NCBI GenBank assembly: GCA_011170285.1
Contig: DUEE01000023.1
Coordinates: forward strand, 7,283 to 71,282
Length of the DNA: 64,000 nucleotides
Origin: Dehalococcoidia bacterium
GTDB taxonomy: Bacteria > Chloroflexota > Dehalococcoidia > Dehalococcoidales > W498
Direction of reading: 5' to 3'
Below the pieces are notes generated by a model, which worked only from the letters and a program-made list of their open reading frames with translations, was not told the origin of the DNA and searched no databases. The position numbers were made by a program, and so were the translations under genes. Shown here in pieces: positions 3,823 through 40,565 of the stretch; the stretch's first letter is position 1; every line of letters begins with the position of its first letter.

Positions 3823-4995
3823 TTATAGTAGTGAGGGTAAATCCTTTGCCGACTCTTCTACTCCTTCAATTTTGCGCCCGATATCCTCTTCTCTTTCTTT
3901 AATCTCATGAAGAAAGGTGGTCGATTTAATATAGTAATTCCTGACCTTTTCCACTTCACTAAGTTCAGACAAGATTACAGTTATATCCATCAGCCCTTTT
4001 TCCCTGGGGTAATCGCCGTTCCTTATTACAGCCTCCGGAAGCACGTCTTTTAGATAGTTGCCGAGTTCCTTAACCATATCCATATTCATTTCCTTAGCTG
4101 GAGCAGAGAGAAGGTATAATGCTCTATGTGAATCCGCAGGGTTACATCTAAGTGATAGCTCACTTATAGCTTCGTCCATTGCCTGGATTCCCTTGTGGGT
4201 TTCGGTGCTTTTTCCCCTGAAATTACGTCCGCCACAGGGAAATCTAAATAATGGAAGTTGTGATTTACCATAGCCCATTACTGTCCATCCTACCAGGGTC
4301 TGTATTATGTCTCCAGCATCAAGCAACTTTGACCCAATATATTTGCGCTTTTTCTCCTCGCCAGCACAAAGTAGATTGTAGAACGGTTCAACTATTAGGG
4401 CATTGATTTGAGCCAGGTTGTTTCTAAGTGAGAAGTCCTTTCTAACATACCTTTGGTTATCAATAAGAATTACTGCATCAGCCACTGAATTGGCAGATTT
4501 AAGACATGTAGCTGAGTTATAGATGGTTCTTTCTTCTGAAGTCTCTTCATGCTCAAAGGGGAGGATAATAAGATTATATACCGGCTTATCCATATAACGC
4601 TCTTTAATGTATTGCGTCATTATTGGTATTGACCCGGAGCCAGTGCCGCCAGCGGCACCGGCAATTAGTAAGAAGGCATCTGACTCAAAGAAGTGCGGAG
4701 CAGTTCTTATAGCGTCTATAACTTTATCGGCGTCTTCCTTGGCTATTTCGGCACCCAGTTCATTTATCTTACCTACGCCATGACCACCAGTTTTTCGACC
4801 TCCGATGAGAATTCTATGCTGGTAATCAGGTTTTATATGGGATAGCCCACTTAAATCAGCAGCATCTGTGTTTATAGCAAAAGCACCAGTAGTTATCTCA
4901 ATCCTACGCGTGCTGCGCGCCCTTTTATTTAGTCGGGCAAACTCATCGGCAATCCTACTGCCGCATTGTCCAAAACCTATAACAACTAATTTCAT
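3823..4995 (-). CDS. tubulin/FtsZ-superfamily GTPase, CetZ/tubulin-like rather than FtsZ-like
   Basis: 390 aa. T1 loop IGFGQCGSRIADEF and G-box AGAAGGTGSGS are the tubulin/CetZ type (GGTGSG). The canonical FtsZ at 32797 has GGGTGTG instead. Other motifs: GHGVGKINELGAEIAKED, PVYNLIILP, LIDNQ, NGDYP. Confidence 0.8.
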   Translation of the reverse strand: MKLVVIGFGQCGSRIADEFARLNKRARSTRRIEITTGAFAINTDAADLSGLSHIKPDYQHRILIGGRKTGGHGVGKINELGAEIAKEDADKVIDAIRTAPHFFESDAFLLIAGAAGGTGSGSIPIMTQYIKERYMDKPVYNLIILPFEHEETSEERTIYNSATCLKSANSVADAVILIDNQRYVRKDFSLRNNLAQINALIVEPFYNLLCAGEEKKRKYIGSKLLDAGDIIQTLVGWTVMGYGKSQLPLFRFPCGGRNFRGKSTETHKGIQAMDEAISELSLRCNPADSHRALYLLSAPAKEMNMDMVKELGNYLKDVLPEAVIRNGDYPREKGLMDITVILSELSEVEKVRNYYIKSTTFLHEIKEREEDIGRKIEGVEESAKDLPSLL

Positions 4996-34058: not shown

Positions 34059-34087
34059 TTGACAAATACTACATATTGTGGTATTCT
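34059..34087 (+). promoter_or_regulatory. sigma-70 promoter of the nrdR operon
   Basis: TTGACA (34059-34064), 17-nt spacer ending in TGg, TATTCT (34082-34087). Confidence 0.6.
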
Positions 34088-34112
34088 AGTTTTAATATCC
34101 TATATAATGTGG
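34066..34112 (+). promoter_or_regulatory. tandem NrdR boxes
   Basis: ATACTACATATTGTGG (34066-34081) matches 13/16 and ATCCTATATAATGTGG (34097-34112) matches 12/16 of the recalled consensus acaCwAtATaTwGtgt. The boxes are 31 bp apart and overlap the -10 element and the TSS region. Confidence 0.6.
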
Positions 34113-34121
34113 AATATTGCT

Positions 34122-34667
34122 ATGAATTGCCCTTATTGTAGTTACCATGATTCTAAGGTTGTTGATTCTCGCGATGTAAATGATGGCATACGCCGCCGAC
34201 GTCAATGCTTAAGGTGCGGCTCCAGGTTCACTACCTATGAGCGACTACAACCGGCTAGTCTCTTTGTTATTAAGAAAGACGAGAGGCGTGAGGAATTTAA
34301 CCGAAATAAACTGCTAACCGGTATTCACAAGGCATGTGAAAAACGACCATTGCCTATGGGCACCGTTGATAAGCTTGCCGATGAAATAGAAGCTGAGCTT
34401 TGCCGCCTGGGTAAGGTTGAGATACCCAGTGCTGTCATCGGTAACATGGTAATGGAAAGGTTAAAGAGCCTAGATTATATTGCCTATATCCGTTTTGCCA
34501 GCGTCTACCGTGAGTTTACTGACATCACGGCCCTAAAACAAGAGGTAGACACCCTGGTTAGCAGCGAAGCTGAAACACCTGCGCCCACTAGCCAGCTCCC
34601 CTTACTTCCCAGTGAGCAAGTAGGGAGACCCCTTACGAGACAAGGACGAGTCAGAAGAAGTAAATAA
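34122..34667 (+). CDS. nrdR: transcriptional repressor NrdR
   Basis: The start is re-set to ATG at 34122 (MNCPYCSYHDSKVVDSRD...RRRRQCLRCGSRFTTYE, zinc ribbon). An ATP-cone follows. Confidence 0.93.
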   Translation: MNCPYCSYHDSKVVDSRDVNDGIRRRRQCLRCGSRFTTYERLQPASLFVIKKDERREEFNRNKLLTGIHKACEKRPLPMGTVDKLADEIEAELCRLGKVEIPSAVIGNMVMERLKSLDYIAYIRFASVYREFTDITALKQEVDTLVSSEAETPAPTSQLPLLPSEQVGRPLTRQGRVRRSK

Positions 34668-34715: not shown

Positions 34716-35054
34716 ATGAGAATAACGCCTAGCCAAAAAGACATCAATGAGAGAAAGGACATTTGGAAAGCAATATGCTGGCGGATGAACGAGAGAAGGA
34801 TCATGCCACAGGAACTTGCTCGTCTGACAGGATACTCGAAAAACCTTATCGAGAAAGGAATAGGCGGCGATTCTGTACCAGTAACAGAGGATTTTTTGCA
34901 GAATTGCGTTACAGCCTTCGGTCTAACAAATGCCAGGGCAAGGTTTTTTGAAGATACGCCTGATATTCTATCACACGACGAGCTGGTGGAACTCATCAAG
35001 CCACCACCGGCAATGCCTCCTCGGCAGGGTAACTTTTGGGACTATAATGATTAG
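34716..35054 (+). CDS. XRE-family HTH protein
   Basis: 112 aa with AGGAGGAGG upstream and the HTH IMPQELARLTGYSKNLIEKGIGG. The stop is 9 nt before the ImmA-like gene. Confidence 0.7.
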   Translation: MRITPSQKDINERKDIWKAICWRMNERRIMPQELARLTGYSKNLIEKGIGGDSVPVTEDFLQNCVTAFGLTNARARFFEDTPDILSHDELVELIKPPPAMPPRQGNFWDYND

Positions 35055-35063
35055 GAGTTATTA

Positions 35064-35945
35064 ATGGGTATAGACTACTTAATCGGTAACAGCTTCACTA
35101 CCCAGGTAGTACCACTATCCGTCAATTTGGATCAAGCTACCAGTCTTATTGTTGAACGAGCCAGACAGTTGTTGAACCAATTGATTAAGGACAGGGGACA
35201 TGATAAACCGCCGTTTTTGCCCGAAGAATTTGCTCGCTTGCAGGGTATCAAGAAATTTGTTAAAGCTGACCTCGGAAAAGTGAGCGGTGTCCTACTCAGA
35301 TTTCATGACGGTTATGTGATTAAGGTTAACCAAAACCACAACCCGGCTAGACAAAACTTCTCCTGTGCTCACGAGATTGGGCACACTTTACTTAGTGAGC
35401 TGAAGCTAGAACTCAACACAGAGAATATTGAGTTCCGAACTTTCAATCCACAAGCTCATGCAATAGCTCATTCAAAAACTAGAGAACGCCTATGTGATGT
35501 CGCTGCTACCGAACTACTCATGCCAGAGTTGGTTTTTAGAGAATATTTGTCAGGTTTTGGTTTGTCCGTACAATCGATTGAGCGATTGGCAAACGTCTTT
35601 AAAGTTTCCATTCGTGCCGCCGCCTGGCGGATTGCTGAAGTTAGTACGGAACCTTGCATTGCCCTTCTGTGGAAGCCGCACCGAAGCGCCAAGCCTAAAA
35701 CGCTTCGGCTAGCCTGGCGTGCAGGCCCAGGGGGAAAATCGAGAGGCAAAGCTAACTATATGCCAGTGCATACACTTGTTAGATACCCCTCCAAATTGCA
35801 TCAAGCTTATGAAAATGATACCCCTGTTGAGTCTTTTAAACTTTTTAAGCTCAATACTGTTACCAAGCGTTGCCCTATGGAATCCAGAGGTTTTGGACGC
35901 AAGGAAACGAGATACGTTATCTCTCTAGCCTTCCTTGATAGATGA
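35064..35945 (+). CDS. ImmA/IrrE-family (COG2856) zinc metallopeptidase
   Basis: 293 aa with the HEXXH motif CAHEIGHTLL and a downstream ATELLMP motif. An extra C-terminal domain of about 110 aa is present. Confidence 0.8.
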   Translation: MGIDYLIGNSFTTQVVPLSVNLDQATSLIVERARQLLNQLIKDRGHDKPPFLPEEFARLQGIKKFVKADLGKVSGVLLRFHDGYVIKVNQNHNPARQNFSCAHEIGHTLLSELKLELNTENIEFRTFNPQAHAIAHSKTRERLCDVAATELLMPELVFREYLSGFGLSVQSIERLANVFKVSIRAAAWRIAEVSTEPCIALLWKPHRSAKPKTLRLAWRAGPGGKSRGKANYMPVHTLVRYPSKLHQAYENDTPVESFKLFKLNTVTKRCPMESRGFGRKETRYVISLAFLDR

Positions 35946-35980: not shown

Positions 35981-38590
35981 ATGTCAAGTAATAGTAATAA
36001 GTATAACAACGGTGAAGGATTTATTAATCGTACCGAAATTCTCAGGGCTGTTGTTGCTGATGCTGAGTCAATCGGTATACGTGATAGAAATAAGATAGAG
36101 CAACTCACCGCTCAGGTGATTGAACGCCTAGAACAGCAGCAAACCCTGCCCGGAATGGAACACCTGGTGCCCAAGCCTCGCCTTCTTCAGAAACACCTGC
36201 CCACAGATTCTGAAATCCGGGCTGCAGTGAAGGAAATCTTAGCTGCTGAAGAACCGGCTAAGCCGGAGGAGGTTAAACCTAAAATGAAAACCCAAATTAA
36301 AGAGATGCCTATTATCCCCACCAAGCCAAAGGTTCAACTGACTCCTGGCATTAATCTTACTGAAAATGCCAGCCGAGTTCTGGAGAGAAGATACCTGAAG
36401 AAAGACAAAACGGGGCAAGTTATTGAGAAGGTAGAGGAGATGTTCCGCCGTGTAGCACAGACTATCGCCTCAGCTGAGCTCATCTACGACCCTAAGGCAG
36501 ATGTCAAGGCAAGGGAGGAGGAGTTCTACCAGTTGATGGCTAATCTAGAGTTCCTGCCTAACTCGCCTACTCTGATGAATGCGGGGAGGGAATTAGGGCA
36601 ACTGTCAGCCTGCTTTGTCCTTCCCATTTACGACTCAATGGAATCCATCTTTGATGCAGTAAAGAATACGGCGCTCATCCACAAAAGTGGCGGCGGGACA
36701 GGGTTTTCCTTCTCCAGTCTAAGACCAGAAACAGATAGAGTAGGCTCCACCGGTGGTGTCGCCAGTGGCCCTGTATCCTTTATGCGAGCCTTTGACGTTG
36801 CCACTGATGTCATTAAACAGGGTGGAATGCGCCGTGGGGCAAATATGGCTATTCTTAACATTGACCACCCCGACATTATGAAATTCATCGGCGCCAAAGA
36901 AGACCCTGCCGCCTTTACCAACTTTAATCTCTCGGTAGCTGTAACCACAGCGTTTATGGAAGCAGTCAGGTCTGACACCGACTATAACCTGATAAATCCA
37001 CGCACTAATGAAATAGCGGGCAAGCTAAATGCCATGGAGGTATTCTATAAGATAGTGGATATGGCATGGAAAACAGGCGACCCCGGTATTGTCTTCCTTG
37101 ACCGGATAAATAAGGATAACCCCGTTAAGCATTTGGGCGAAATTGAAAGCACCAATCCCTGCGGGGAGCAGCCGTTACTCCCCTACGAATCGTGTAATCT
37201 GGGCTCCATCAATCTAGCCAGGATGCTGCGAACGACAAACGGAACCACCGATATTGATTATCCCAAGCTAGCTGAGACGGTAAGGATTGCTATCAGGTTT
37301 CTAGATAATGTCATCGGTGTTAATAAGTTCCCCCTCCCGGAAATAAAGGACAAGACCAATAAGACGAGAAAGATTGGTCTCGGAGTGATGGGGTTTGCTG
37401 ATATGTTAATCCAGATGGGCATCCCCTACGACTCAGAGGAGGCGCTAAAAGTAGCAGAGAAGGTAATGGCCGATATACAACACTATGCGACTGAAGCTTC
37501 TAAAGAAATAGCACAAGAAAGAGGTGTATTTCCCGCTTTTGAGGGAAGCATCTATGACTGCCCCGATGGTATCAGAGTGAGAAATGCCACCAGAACTACT
37601 ATTGCTCCCACCGGTACCCTGAGCATAATAGCTGGCTGCTCCAGCGGTATTGAGCCTCTCTTTGCCCTGAGCTATACCAGAAACATACTGGATAGTGACC
37701 AGCTTATCGAGGTTAATCCCTATTTCGAGCAAGTAGCCAGGAGCGAGGGCTTTTACTCCGAGGAGCTTATGCGACAGCTAGCCGCAGGGGCTAAACTCCA
37801 AGATACAGACGGAGTTCCTGACGATATCAAACTACTATTTGTCACTGCCCACGAAATAACACCTGAAGGGCATGTCAAGATGCAAGCCGCCTTTCAGAAG
37901 TCTACCCACAACGCCGTCTCTAAAACAGTCAACTTCCCCCAGGATGCTACCAAGGAAGACATAGCCAAAGTGTATATGATGGCTTATGAAGAGGGATTAA
38001 AGGGAATAACTATCTACCGGGATAGAAGCCGTGAAGCTCAGGTTTTAACCACGGGCAAGGTAGAAAAGGTTGAGAGTGCCGGGCTTACCCCCAGGGGGAG
38101 AGCTAAAACTACCACAGGGATTACCGAAAGGGTAACCACCGGTTGTGGCTATATCTATGTAACCGTGAACTCTGATGAGCAAGGAATATGCGAGGTCTTC
38201 TCCACACTGGGCAAAGCTGGAGGCTGTGCCTCTGCCCAACTGGAAGCCATCTGCCGACTCATCTCCCTGGCATTGAGGTCTGGCATAGATGTCGCCTCAG
38301 TGGTAAGGCAGCTTCGTGGCATCCGCTGTCCATCTATTGCCTGGGAAGAGGGTAAGTCTATCCTGTCCTGCGCTGATGCCATTGCCAGCGTTCTGGAAAA
38401 ACACATAAGCGGTGATAGTGGCAACGGGAAAGAAAGCTCAAAAGTTGAGGATGCTCTAAACAGTAAGGATAGTGGTCATGAGGTAGATATAGCCCGGAAC
38501 ATAGCCGGGCAGTGCCCCGACTGTGGCAACCTTCTAGTATATCAGGAGGGCTGCTTCATCTGCCCCACCTGCGGCTATACGAAGTGTTAA
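35981..38590 (+). CDS. nrdJ: adenosylcobalamin-dependent (class II) ribonucleotide reductase
   Basis: 869 aa with [22 protein letters not shown], a thiyl-radical loop region and a C-terminal zinc ribbon CPDCGN...CPTCGYTKC. About 115 aa of N-terminal extension. Confidence 0.93.
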
Positions 38591-38634
38591 ACAGAAACAG
38601 TTATCAAGAATTCAGAGTATAAAGGAGGAAAATA

Positions 38635-39303
38635 ATGAAAAACCATCAAGAGCTAGCTAGGGAGTTCGAGGAGACTCTCAAGCTAGGGAGTTGTCTAATA
38701 GGGGTTAGGTATAGCGATAAGCCAGACTCCAGGGTAGACACAGAGAGAAAGCTTGCTGCTTGTGAAGCTATCGATATTGTCAGAAGAGAAAAAGCAATGG
38801 TTAATCTTTCATCGGAAACTTGCAGTTGCATAGGCGGAAAATACTACCTTGGCTTAGACCCTGTTCCTAAAGAGCAAATCATCAAGGTGGTCATGGATGT
38901 TCACAAAATGTTCGCCTCGGAACAACTGGCACGGCAATTCTTAGACAATGTACCACCGCCGAGTGGTCGGGGCAACTTTGTGGTCATAGCGCCCCTCACA
39001 GAGGTGACCGTAGAGCCTGACCTGGTCCTTTCTGTCTGTACTGCCGAGCAAGCGAATAGAATAGTTAGCCTTCTAATGTACTCAGGGTTGAAACCTTTTA
39101 CCTATAATCTGGTCAGTGCTGGATGCACCTCCCTGGCAAATCCTATGGTAACTGGTGAAATAGACATAAATTTAATAACTGACCATGCCAGAAGAAGGGT
39201 GCCGAATTTCGCAAGTAATGAACTTATTGTAGCTATGCCCTTTGAGAAATTTAAGGAAGCGTCGGCTAACATACCATATGCTGGTGCAGTAATAAAATGT
39301 TAG
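38635..39303 (+). CDS. DUF169 domain protein
   Basis: 222 aa. The pattern LKLGSCLIGVRY...CEAIDIVRREKAM...CSCIGGKYYLG matches my recollection of DUF169 (COG2043). Confidence 0.6.
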   Translation: MKNHQELAREFEETLKLGSCLIGVRYSDKPDSRVDTERKLAACEAIDIVRREKAMVNLSSETCSCIGGKYYLGLDPVPKEQIIKVVMDVHKMFASEQLARQFLDNVPPPSGRGNFVVIAPLTEVTVEPDLVLSVCTAEQANRIVSLLMYSGLKPFTYNLVSAGCTSLANPMVTGEIDINLITDHARRRVPNFASNELIVAMPFEKFKEASANIPYAGAVIKC

Positions 39304-39316
39304 ACCCGTTACTTCA

Positions 39317-39412
39317 CGAAACCTAGCTGGGCAGTGCCCTGACTGTGGCAACCTACTCGTCTATTAAGAGGGATGCTTCATCTGCCCCACCTGTGGCTAT
39401 ACCAAGTGCTGA
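39317..39412 (+). pseudogene. displaced duplicate of the nrdJ 3' end (zinc-ribbon tail) with an internal stop
   Basis: 39323-39412 aligns with 38501-38590 at 77/90 nt by manual alignment. It reads [28 protein letters not shown]. Confidence 0.8.
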
Positions 39413-39421
39413 ATAAAACCC

Positions 39422-39450
39422 TTGACAAAATACACGGAAGCGTGTGTAAT
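39422..39450 (+). promoter_or_regulatory. putative sigma-70 promoter in the nrd/acs intergenic region
   Basis: TTGACA (39422-39427), 17-nt spacer, TGTAAT (39445-39450). It lies about 260 nt upstream of cooC. Confidence 0.4.
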
Positions 39451-39581
39451 CAGACTGACTACCATAGTGGGAAAGTAGAGACGCGGCAGACAAGACCAGA
39501 GAGATTATTGCCTAACCTTTAAAGCTTGCTTTGTTGTCAGCTTCCTATTTGACAATATTAATATTAGATAAGTAAAATGGC

Positions 39582-39710: not shown

Positions 39711-40499
39711 ATGAAGATTGCTGTCACTGGTAAAGGCGGAGTAGGGAAGACCTTATTAACGGCTCTCCTTGCTAAGGTATTTTCTGAAGCTGGCTATTCT
39801 GTTCTAGCTATAGATGCTGACCCCGATGCCAATCTAGCTGCCACCCTTGGTTTTCCCGACAGTGACAAGATGGTCCCTATATCTGAGATGAGCGCTCTTA
39901 TTGAAGAAAGGACAGGAGCACGCCCGGGTCAAATTGCACCCTACTATAGGCTGAACCCCAAAGTTGATGACTTACCAGAGAAGTATTCTATAATATACGA
40001 TGGAATTCGGTTAATGGCAATGGGGCGAATTAAACGAGGTGGAACTGGTTGTTATTGCCCTGAGGGTGCTTTGCTACAAGCTTTGCTTATCCATTTGCTG
40101 GTAGTAAGGGATGAGGTGGTTATTTTAGATATGGAAGCCGGGATAGAACATTTGGCACGAGGAACAGCAAAGGCGGTAGATAAACTGATTGTAGTAGTGG
40201 AACCAGGCAGACGGAGCATTGAAACAGCCTACAGGATTGATGAACTGGCACAGGATATTGGTCTACTGAATGTCGCCGTGGTAGCCAACAAGGTCAGAAA
40301 CCAATCAGACAGGAAATTCCTGCTTTCTAACCTTCCCGACTTCAAAATTCTTGGCTTTATCCCCTATGACCAAGCAATAGTGGAAGCTGACCTGGCTAAT
40401 CTTCCCTTGCTTGATTCCAGCCAGCAGATTATCAATGAAATAAGAAATATTTATCAGGCTTTGCTATCACCGGCTAAAGTACAAAGCCTGATAAATTAG
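39711..40499 (+). CDS. cooC: CooC/AcsF-type Ni-insertion ATPase (paralogue 1)
   Basis: 262 aa with a deviant Walker A GKGGVGKT, DADPDANL and the metal motif CYCPEG. Confidence 0.88.
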   Translation: MKIAVTGKGGVGKTLLTALLAKVFSEAGYSVLAIDADPDANLAATLGFPDSDKMVPISEMSALIEERTGARPGQIAPYYRLNPKVDDLPEKYSIIYDGIRLMAMGRIKRGGTGCYCPEGALLQALLIHLLVVRDEVVILDMEAGIEHLARGTAKAVDKLIVVVEPGRRSIETAYRIDELAQDIGLLNVAVVANKVRNQSDRKFLLSNLPDFKILGFIPYDQAIVEADLANLPLLDSSQQIINEIRNIYQALLSPAKVQSLIN

Positions 40500-40565
40500 T
40501 AAGAAGCATAACTGCATTTTAATAGGCATCAATTATCAGCAAAATTTTAATAAAGGAGGTTTTCT

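Follow-up and report, generated by a model that had tools for sequence, protein, structure and literature searches.

Behind nrdJ, the gene for the class II (B12-dependent) ribonucleotide reductase (RNR) of a Dehalococcoidia bacterium, lies a DUF169 gene (family PF02596), and behind that gene the last 90 nt of nrdJ occur a second time. We analysed this arrangement in a 64,000-nt stretch of contig DUEE01000023.1 (the window; coordinates are positions in it, and the related loci compared with it are labelled L plus a number). The upstream repeat, copy A, is the live zinc tail of the enzyme. The downstream repeat, copy B, is a dead tail that descends from another functional nrdJ allele and did not arise by duplication in place. 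On balance, though not with great confidence, we attribute the arrangement to homologous recombination in which two diverged nrdJ alleles exchanged sequence at the conserved tail, without a dedicated recombinase. We regard it not as a new system but as something that recombination ordinarily produces; only its place is unusual, in the zinc tail of an RNR that is essential to a streamlined anaerobe. The features involved are as follows:

35981-38590, + strand: nrdJ, class II RNR, 869 aa, intact; Pfam domains Ribonuc_red_lgN, Ribonuc_red_lgC and TSCPD
38495-38596 (coding 38501-38590), + strand: repeat copy A, the live zinc tail with six Cys at the NrdJ C-terminus; matches the L114/L116/L117 tail at 87/90 positions
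38591-38634, + strand: truncated DUF169 leader with ribosome-binding site AAGGAGG (38622-38628); the family promoter and the 5′ half of the untranslated region (UTR) are gone
38635-39303, + strand: DUF169 gene, 222 aa, intact; Pfam E = 1e-31, profile positions 2-206 of 209
39304-39316, + strand: filler of unknown origin between the DUF169 stop codon and the tail fragment, shared with L090 (1 difference in 19 nt) and recognisable in L094
39317-39418 (pseudo-coding 39323-39412), + strand: repeat copy B, orphan nrdJ tail without a start codon, with an in-frame TAA at 39365-39367
39422-39450, + strand: conserved promoter-like element, TTGACA-17 nt-TGTAAT, with the palindrome ACACGGAAGCGTGT (39432-39445) in the spacer; orphaned in the window
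39451-39532, + strand: putative remnant of a downstream cassette that was lost (its 5′ region), at the end of the variable slot; aligns with the 5′UTR of the L007 methylase gene and with the L002 nrdJ-cooC spacer

The two copies of the nrdJ tail

The coding parts of the two copies, 38501-38590 and 39323-39412, align without gaps and are identical at 77 of 90 positions. The repeat extends to 102 nt with 84% identity (38495-38596 and 39317-39418, spacing 822 nt); within the window, blastn matched the pair with E = 5e-28 and found no third copy. Of the 13 differences, nine are synonymous and lie at third positions; one, ATA to CTA, is at a first position and replaces Ile with Leu; two fall in a codon that went from CAG to TAA; and one is in the stop codon (TAA to TGA). 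A first-pass annotation of this DNA had the identity and the listed substitutions exactly right, apart from omitting the stop-codon change. It had also set copy B immediately after the DUF169 stop codon (39301-39303), from which 13 nt (to 39317) or 19 nt (to 39323) in fact separate it.

Copy A carries the motif of a functional tail, CxxC-x9-CxxCxxC-x4-C (Cys spacing 3,10,3,3,5), in frame at the end of the 869-aa NrdJ. The Cys-rich domain of a characterised class II RNR, with spacing 3,10,3,3,6, binds zinc, and all six Cys are required for turnover (Loderer et al. 2017, PMC5704485). Copy B retains all six Cys codons, in a frame that differs from that of DUF169, and its peptide equals the clade consensus, with no missense change, except for the TAA at codon 15. 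It lies 732 nt 3′ of the nrdJ stop codon, has no in-frame ATG, GTG or TTG upstream, and does not qualify as a translated part of the enzyme. Copy B is a dead, untranslated copy of the last ~30-32 nrdJ codons, a pseudogene fragment. The possibility that it reaches further, into the filler, as nrdJ linker was ruled out, since the filler does not match the conserved pre-tail DYGLAKN of nrdJ relatives.

Six contigs from separate samples and assemblers (one from ENA, three from JGI and two from Logan) showed no mismatch over nrdJ, DUF169, copy B and cooC. These six independent, identical assemblies rule out an assembly chimera, and the structure is therefore real. The strain is present in JGI samples 3300005823, 3300008517 and 3300005782, in ENA ERZ25073496, and in SRR3089827 and SRR3095939.

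We compared the locus with the nrdJ loci of 80 species-representative Dehalococcoidia and of the closer metagenomic relatives L113-L117 and L120-L122 (together ~90). NrdJ of the window is 66-81% identical in amino acid sequence to the 80 representatives, and the nucleotide identity of its gene is ~95% to L114/L116 and 92% to L113. The linker (38405-38500) that joins the TSCPD domain to the Cys-rich tail is hypervariable, with indels even among relatives that are ~95% identical (L113, L114); the 90-nt tail that follows it is among the most conserved parts of nrdJ. In L113 (1869-1895), the sequence after the TAA stop codon reads TGCTGAATAAAA, which is identical to the last 6 nt of copy B plus the next 6 nt. 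Either 6 nt were duplicated in tandem here, or the sequence may be a miniature scar left when a tail was displaced earlier; both are tentative readings.

Third codon positions hold 10 of the 13 differences between the copies (binomial P = 0.0016), and the Nei-Gojobori method gave a synonymous distance (dS) of 0.77 and a non-synonymous distance (dN) of 0.015. In-place duplication followed by neutral decay of copy B predicts that ~64% of the changes would be non-synonymous; at most two of 12 are (P = 0.0012). The copies are identical to each other at 75 of 87 positions, a level that each also reaches with orthologous tails from other species (best matches: 78/87 for B with L007, 76/87 for A with several loci). 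Nor are they each other's closest relatives, as in-place duplication would have them be, since copy A shares 87 of 90 positions with the L114 tail and only 77 with copy B. Their synonymous distance is far above the four-fold divergence between the window and its closest relatives (0.12-0.16), and is like that of diverged nrdJ alleles (0.47 raw against L120). The synonymous bias, together with an A-B identity at the inter-species level, therefore shows that the tails descend from two nrdJ alleles, each of which stayed functional during most of the time since they separated. The first-pass proposal that copy B diverged under coding selection, and belongs to a different allele, is borne out by these figures.

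Directly 3′ of copy B stands ATAAAACCCTTGACAAAATACACGGAAGCGTGTGTAAT, a -35/-10 pair with a 17-nt spacer that is single-copy in the window. The same promoter-like element follows the stop codon of the live nrdJ in L003, L007, L014, L020, L056, L058, L060, L064 and L114/L116/L117. In relatives (L003 8516-8545, L007 4400-4429, L014 from 8618, L058 from 8644, L064 from 3283, L001 from 9227 and L116 ~490-520), it consists of TTGACA, a 17-nt spacer with ACACGGAAGCGTGT and a TATAAT-like sequence, and it precedes different N6_N4 DNA methylases or a methylase together with an EcoO109I-type restriction system. We found no methylase in the window; hence, its promoter is orphaned. The element with its palindrome could be the operator of a restriction-modification (R-M) controller or of another repressor.

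In L007, L003 and L114, the end of nrdJ with the promoter behind it matches copy B plus promoter over 132-137 nt, at 88-89% identity. With the next ~80 nt included, copy B and the promoter are collinear with the nrdJ 3′ end of L007 and with the nrdJ-cooC spacer of L002; copy B therefore occupies the normal site of a functional tail. Homology to all close relatives resumes at 39533, and L116, L118 and L120 are ~90% identical to the window from 39533 or 39579 on. Thus, the first-pass suggestion that recombination at the nrdJ 3′ end placed DUF169 and left an orphan tail behind it holds in outline, with copy B followed by a conserved promoter as in at least nine relatives.

The DUF169 gene and its tail relic

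The DUF169 protein is a full-length member of its family (110.9 bits, against a Pfam cutoff of 27) and has invariant cysteines. The gene is under purifying selection, with a dN/dS of ~0.1 against L094 and L087 and of 0.36 against L090. Its GC content (0.45) and GC content at third codon positions (0.44) are like those of neighbouring genes, so that the break in GC or codon usage that the first-pass annotation had suggested looking for was not found. An AlphaFold2 model had a mean confidence (pLDDT) of 88; none of the folds in the PDB matched it (best E 0.14), nor was there a sequence match. We found no report of a function for DUF169 in the literature.

The leader keeps the last ~45 nt of the 5′UTR typical of the family. 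Homology to that UTR begins at AACAG, at the nrdJ stop codon, and the family promoter (TTGACA-N17/18-TAAAGT) is replaced by nrdJ sequence. On the + strand, we found no promoter-like or terminator-like site in the interval between nrdJ and DUF169; co-transcription of the two genes is therefore likely, with DUF169 most likely read through from nrdJ.

Close homologues of DUF169 numbered 43, and we retrieved ~25 of the loci. Homologues with 73-80% identity occur in at least eight unrelated contexts, for example beside PAC2, HicA, PAS kinase, AAA_21 and MatE. In loci from unrelated contexts, DUF169 has its own conserved promoter, the TTGACA-N17/18-TAAAGT element, and a 5′UTR of ~90-105 nt (L097 ~1470-1580, L103 ~3890-4000, L094 ~4000-4144, L106, L107, L110, L102, L088, L087 and L101). 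These conserved UTRs gave no credible Rfam match, and could be an undescribed cis-regulatory leader. A motif, GAATTCCAGGGACACCAT(A/C)CC..., lies within ~130 nt after the DUF169 stop codon in L088, L102, L103, L106, L108 and L110, twice in L108 and L110, and looks like a dispersed repeat of the REP (repetitive extragenic palindromic) or MITE (miniature inverted-repeat transposable element) kind. The open reading frames (ORFs) upstream of DUF169 homologues, considered as stand-alone TSCPD or zinc-ribbon genes, proved to be unrelated to nrdJ.

The first-pass annotation had taken DUF169 and the RNR to be a unit that moves together. The comparison does not support this view. Neither DUF169 nor a second tail was found 3′ of nrdJ in any of the 80 species-representative loci (0/80), or in L113-L117 and L120-L122, and the homologues sit elsewhere under their own promoter. 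Hence, adjacency of nrdJ and DUF169, which it had proposed to look for more widely, is not widespread. Secondary matches to the tail in the 80 relatives were attributable to chance or lay in or around nrdR, upstream of nrdJ.

What travels with DUF169, in a small sub-clade, is the dead tail fragment and not the RNR. The L090 lineage is represented by JGI 3300061472 and the L094 lineage by GCA_964597725.1. The DUF169 gene of L090 (87% amino acid and 91% nucleotide identity to that of the window) is followed by the same filler, a tail relic and the cooC-upstream region; this relic lacks a stop codon and differs by five missense changes, one of which removes a zinc-ligand Cys. In the L094 group (80% amino acid identity to the window), the order is family promoter, UTR, DUF169, filler and a strongly decayed relic, NLAGQ*WHCGNLSIYGTGCLISSPGNMPGER, which is ~50% decayed and contains indels. 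No nrdJ lies near the L094 DUF169 gene, and the 1.1-kb non-coding stretch upstream of it holds no nrdJ remnant at E below 0.01. The window, L090 and L094 have the same boundary, the R-N codons, at which homology to nrdJ sets in, and the three form one clade in the DUF169 tree, with a dS of about 1 between the window and L094. The shared filler and R-N boundary within one clade of this depth therefore indicate that the DUF169-tail junction is old and shared by descent. A +1 frameshift that would join DUF169 to copy B was considered and dropped, as the L094 relic has an early stop codon and no support was found.

Missense changes are absent from the branch leading to copy B (P for no missense, 0.0002-0.0025), on which we counted four to six synonymous changes and a single nonsense change. 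Since copy B is undecayed while its sister relics have decayed, we reason that it must have been renewed from a functional tail.

The nrdJ-cooC slot and the history of the locus

The interval between nrdJ and cooC is a slot with variable content:

Window: DUF169, copy B, orphan promoter, remnant
L116/L117: promoter, 113-aa ORF, methylase, EcoO109I-type restriction endonuclease (REase), 69-aa ORF
L113 and L120-122: 112-aa protein with a weak REase-like match
L002: decayed promoter only
L001, L004, L009, L115: DUF3467-like gene

R-M systems and nucleases are thus among what relatives carry in this gap. Among these contents, only the DUF169 cargo comes with a tail duplication. The 112-aa basic protein (MPKSQYE.GR.KE.KVA..LRG.GA.V...) follows nrdJ in L120 (5549-5887), L113 (1902-2240) and L013; its match to the PIWI-associated REase domain PF18154 is sub-threshold (22.6 bits, cutoff 26.1).

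The nrdJ gene itself is strongly mosaic, and exchange of this kind is common at the locus. A 300-nt tract (37344-37650) is 100% identical to L113 within a background of ~93%, and after ~38300 L113 changes to a different linker, tail and downstream gene. In L120, the four-fold divergence of nrdJ (L120 2852-5530) is 0.47, against 0.18-0.25 for cooC, fhs and folD. The pattern indicates allelic replacement of nrdJ among close lineages. The locus marks the end of nrdJ, together with its gap to cooC, as a hotspot for recombination and cargo. A search for a breakpoint in nrdJ against the species representatives was set aside because its resolution was too low; the best neighbour shifts along the gene at only ~80% identity.

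Genes around the slot are arranged in the order nrdR (34059-34667), helix-turn-helix (HTH)-like ORF, Peptidase_M78, nrdJ, DUF169, cooC (39711-40499), fhs, cooC, folD and CODH/ACS. In most relatives, nrdR directly precedes nrdJ. In the window, a 112-aa HTH-like ORF without a Pfam match and a Peptidase_M78 (ImmA/IrrE-type) gene lie between the two (34716-35945), as they do in L008, L009, L015, L071, L073, L079 and L120; the pair may act as repressor and anti-repressor on the nrd operon. An Rfam scan of 33.5-41 kb gave no credible RNA element, its only match being an Avalong thermometer (40440-40538) at 22 bits, against a threshold of 154.

Our favoured history, recombination at the tail between two diverged nrdJ alleles, would run as follows. 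Allele 1 would have consisted of nrdJ with tail A, a promoter-less DUF169 gene and an older tail relic; in allele 2, the promoter would have been preceded by a functional tail that belonged to a different lineage. We infer a right-hand crossover inside the tail, near its 5′ edge. Sequence 3′ of the crossover (most of copy B, the promoter and the remnant) would then be the recipient's own and recently functional, and the DUF169-filler-'RN' junction would be inherited from the DUF169-linked relic. Copy B would subsequently have been silenced by one C-to-T nonsense change, from CAA (as in L090 and L113) to TAA. If most of copy B was the recipient's former functional tail, this would explain why it has only synonymous differences and no missense change.

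Several observations weigh against this history. We found no donor allele for copy B, the best matches being 80/90, and a segment of 90 nt offers few sites for polarising the changes. The flanks of L114/L116/L117 match the window on both sides and are equally diverged from it at four-fold sites (0.125-0.135 in nrdJ, 0.12-0.26 in cooC, fhs and folD), and in these relatives an A-type tail abuts the promoter. In the 120 nt upstream of cooC, L090 and L116 are each ~77-78% identical to the window and look, by eye, closer to each other than to it; hence, presence of DUF169 does not follow the local tree, which complicates any single-event history. The L090 contig starts at the DUF169 start codon, so that its A-side junction falls outside the contig.

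There is also a simpler view, in which tail A is resident and the leader, DUF169, filler and copy B came as a block, or in which the relatives lost that block by recombination between A and B. In the first form, the 822-bp block (truncated leader, DUF169, filler and tail B) would have been gained within the tail, either through a single Campbell-type crossover that took in a circularised fragment or through a pair of crossovers, and copy B would be a relic of the donor. In the second, the occupied state would be ancestral and the lineage of L114/L116 would have lost the block. We consider the two forms, taken jointly, a real possibility, though clearly a less probable one than recombination between two alleles with B as the former functional tail. 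They are favoured by the shared flanks just described, by the L114/L116/L117 tail, which matches A at 87 of 90 positions and B at 78, and by the fact that the DUF169-filler-relic unit is common to L090 and L094. The L116 tail agrees with A at variable sites 1-72, with B at 81 and 87, and with A at 89; this fits a crossover at 73-80, in an integration or a deletion, but is also compatible with ordinary divergence. A resident tail A leaves unexplained why copy B has no missense change when its sister relics have decayed. The window after the -10 box, moreover, matches L007 and L002 and not L116.

For the same reasons, the search for the native tail that the first-pass annotation had proposed gave a divided answer. 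The tails of L114/L116/L117 favour A, whereas the pristine coding state of copy B and its L007/L002-like flank, the promoter-remnant block, favour B. Mean similarity to 74 relatives was uninformative in this respect (69.8 versus 68.4 of 87).

A more speculative extension is that the dead tail serves as a portable homology arm, with which DUF169 could be moved by plain homologous recombination behind any related nrdJ, irrespective of the sequence downstream of it, the fragment being renewed at each move from the live tail of the recipient. We think this rather unlikely. If true, it would be an unrecognised route by which a single gene spreads without a recombinase, carried along by the conserved end of a gene that is essential.

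That the insert is a site-specific integrative element, which targets and restores the nrdJ 3′ end and has A and B as attL and attR, seems improbable. Foreign DNA does lie between direct repeats of a gene 3′ end, the upstream copy keeps the gene intact, and the cargo of the slot differs in each relative. Against this, we found no integrase or recombinase in the insert or among the ORFs of at least 150 aa that were scanned against Pfam ~10 kb to either side (~26.0-49.5 kb); the flanking ORFs scanned are housekeeping genes (priA, trmD, rsmH, ftsA, ftsZ, nrdR, cooC, fhs, folD and CODH/ACS). In addition, the insert is a single 0.7-kb gene, the other cargo in the slot of relatives comes without a tail duplication, and the repeats are 85% identical over ~100 nt with no short identical core. 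An integron cassette fits no better, as 39300-39450 contains no inverted repeat except the 5-bp arms of the promoter palindrome, and no integrase was found.

Equally hard to sustain, and if anything a little more so, is a functional module in which DUF169 assists the class II RNR, for instance by reducing the Cys-rich tail. The gene lies 44 nt 3′ of nrdJ without a promoter of its own, its product has invariant cysteines, and the native reductant of NrdJ enzymes with a Cys-rich tail has been reported as unknown (PMC5704485). However, none of the ~90 other nrdJ loci has DUF169, the ~25 DUF169 loci elsewhere have their own promoter, and the adjacency is limited to one lineage, possibly two. The comparative data argue against a role of DUF169 with the RNR, and the case is a warning that functional linkage is not to be read from one adjacency. 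Least credible of all is a target-site or tandem duplication in place when DUF169 was inserted, with copy B then drifting as a pseudogene: direct repeats do flank the insert exactly, but the rarity of non-synonymous changes, the high dS and an A-B identity no greater than that between orthologues of different species all contradict it.

In its favoured form, recombination between two nrdJ alleles at the tail, the locus would be a clean, datable example of how a single gene entered a core-genome operon in streamlined, uncultured Dehalococcoidia without mobile-element machinery.

Comparison with known systems

Genomic islands that target transfer-messenger RNA or tRNA genes insert in the 3′ end of the gene, carry a replacement 3′ end and are bounded by attL/attR direct repeats. 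As in such 3′-end-targeting islands and prophages, direct repeats of the target 3′ end bracket the insert here, and the upstream copy keeps the gene functional. Unlike them, the present locus has a single-gene insert, long and diverged repeats with a synonymous bias, and no integrase that we could find.

With respect to the protein, copy A resembles the zinc domain described by Loderer et al.: it lies behind TSCPD, at the very C-terminus, and its six Cys are spaced almost as they are there. Copy B differs from that domain in that it keeps the six Cys codons but has an internal TAA, lacks a start codon and is detached from the enzyme.

At effector loci of the Rhs, CdiA and type VI secretion system (T6SS) kinds, displaced orphan 3′ ends have been credited to recombination, either homologous or of the homology-facilitated illegitimate type (Kirchberger et al. 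2017, PMC5361080). This displacement of 3′ ends is the closest mechanistic analogue of the nrdJ-DUF169 locus. There are differences. The anchor here would be the duplicated tail itself, whereas in those systems it is a conserved core upstream of a variable tip; the gene concerned is an essential housekeeping enzyme and not a toxin; the cargo is DUF169 and not an immunity gene; and there is one orphan, not an array. The likeness lies in the outcome, with a start-less orphan 3′ of an intact gene, empty sites in L114/L116/L117 and a mosaic locus. As at Rhs, CdiA and T6SS loci, an incoming module would have recombined at a conserved part of the resident gene, which stays intact with a new 3′ end, and the former 3′ end would have moved downstream as a start-less orphan, at a locus that varies among close strains and without the aid of a dedicated recombinase.

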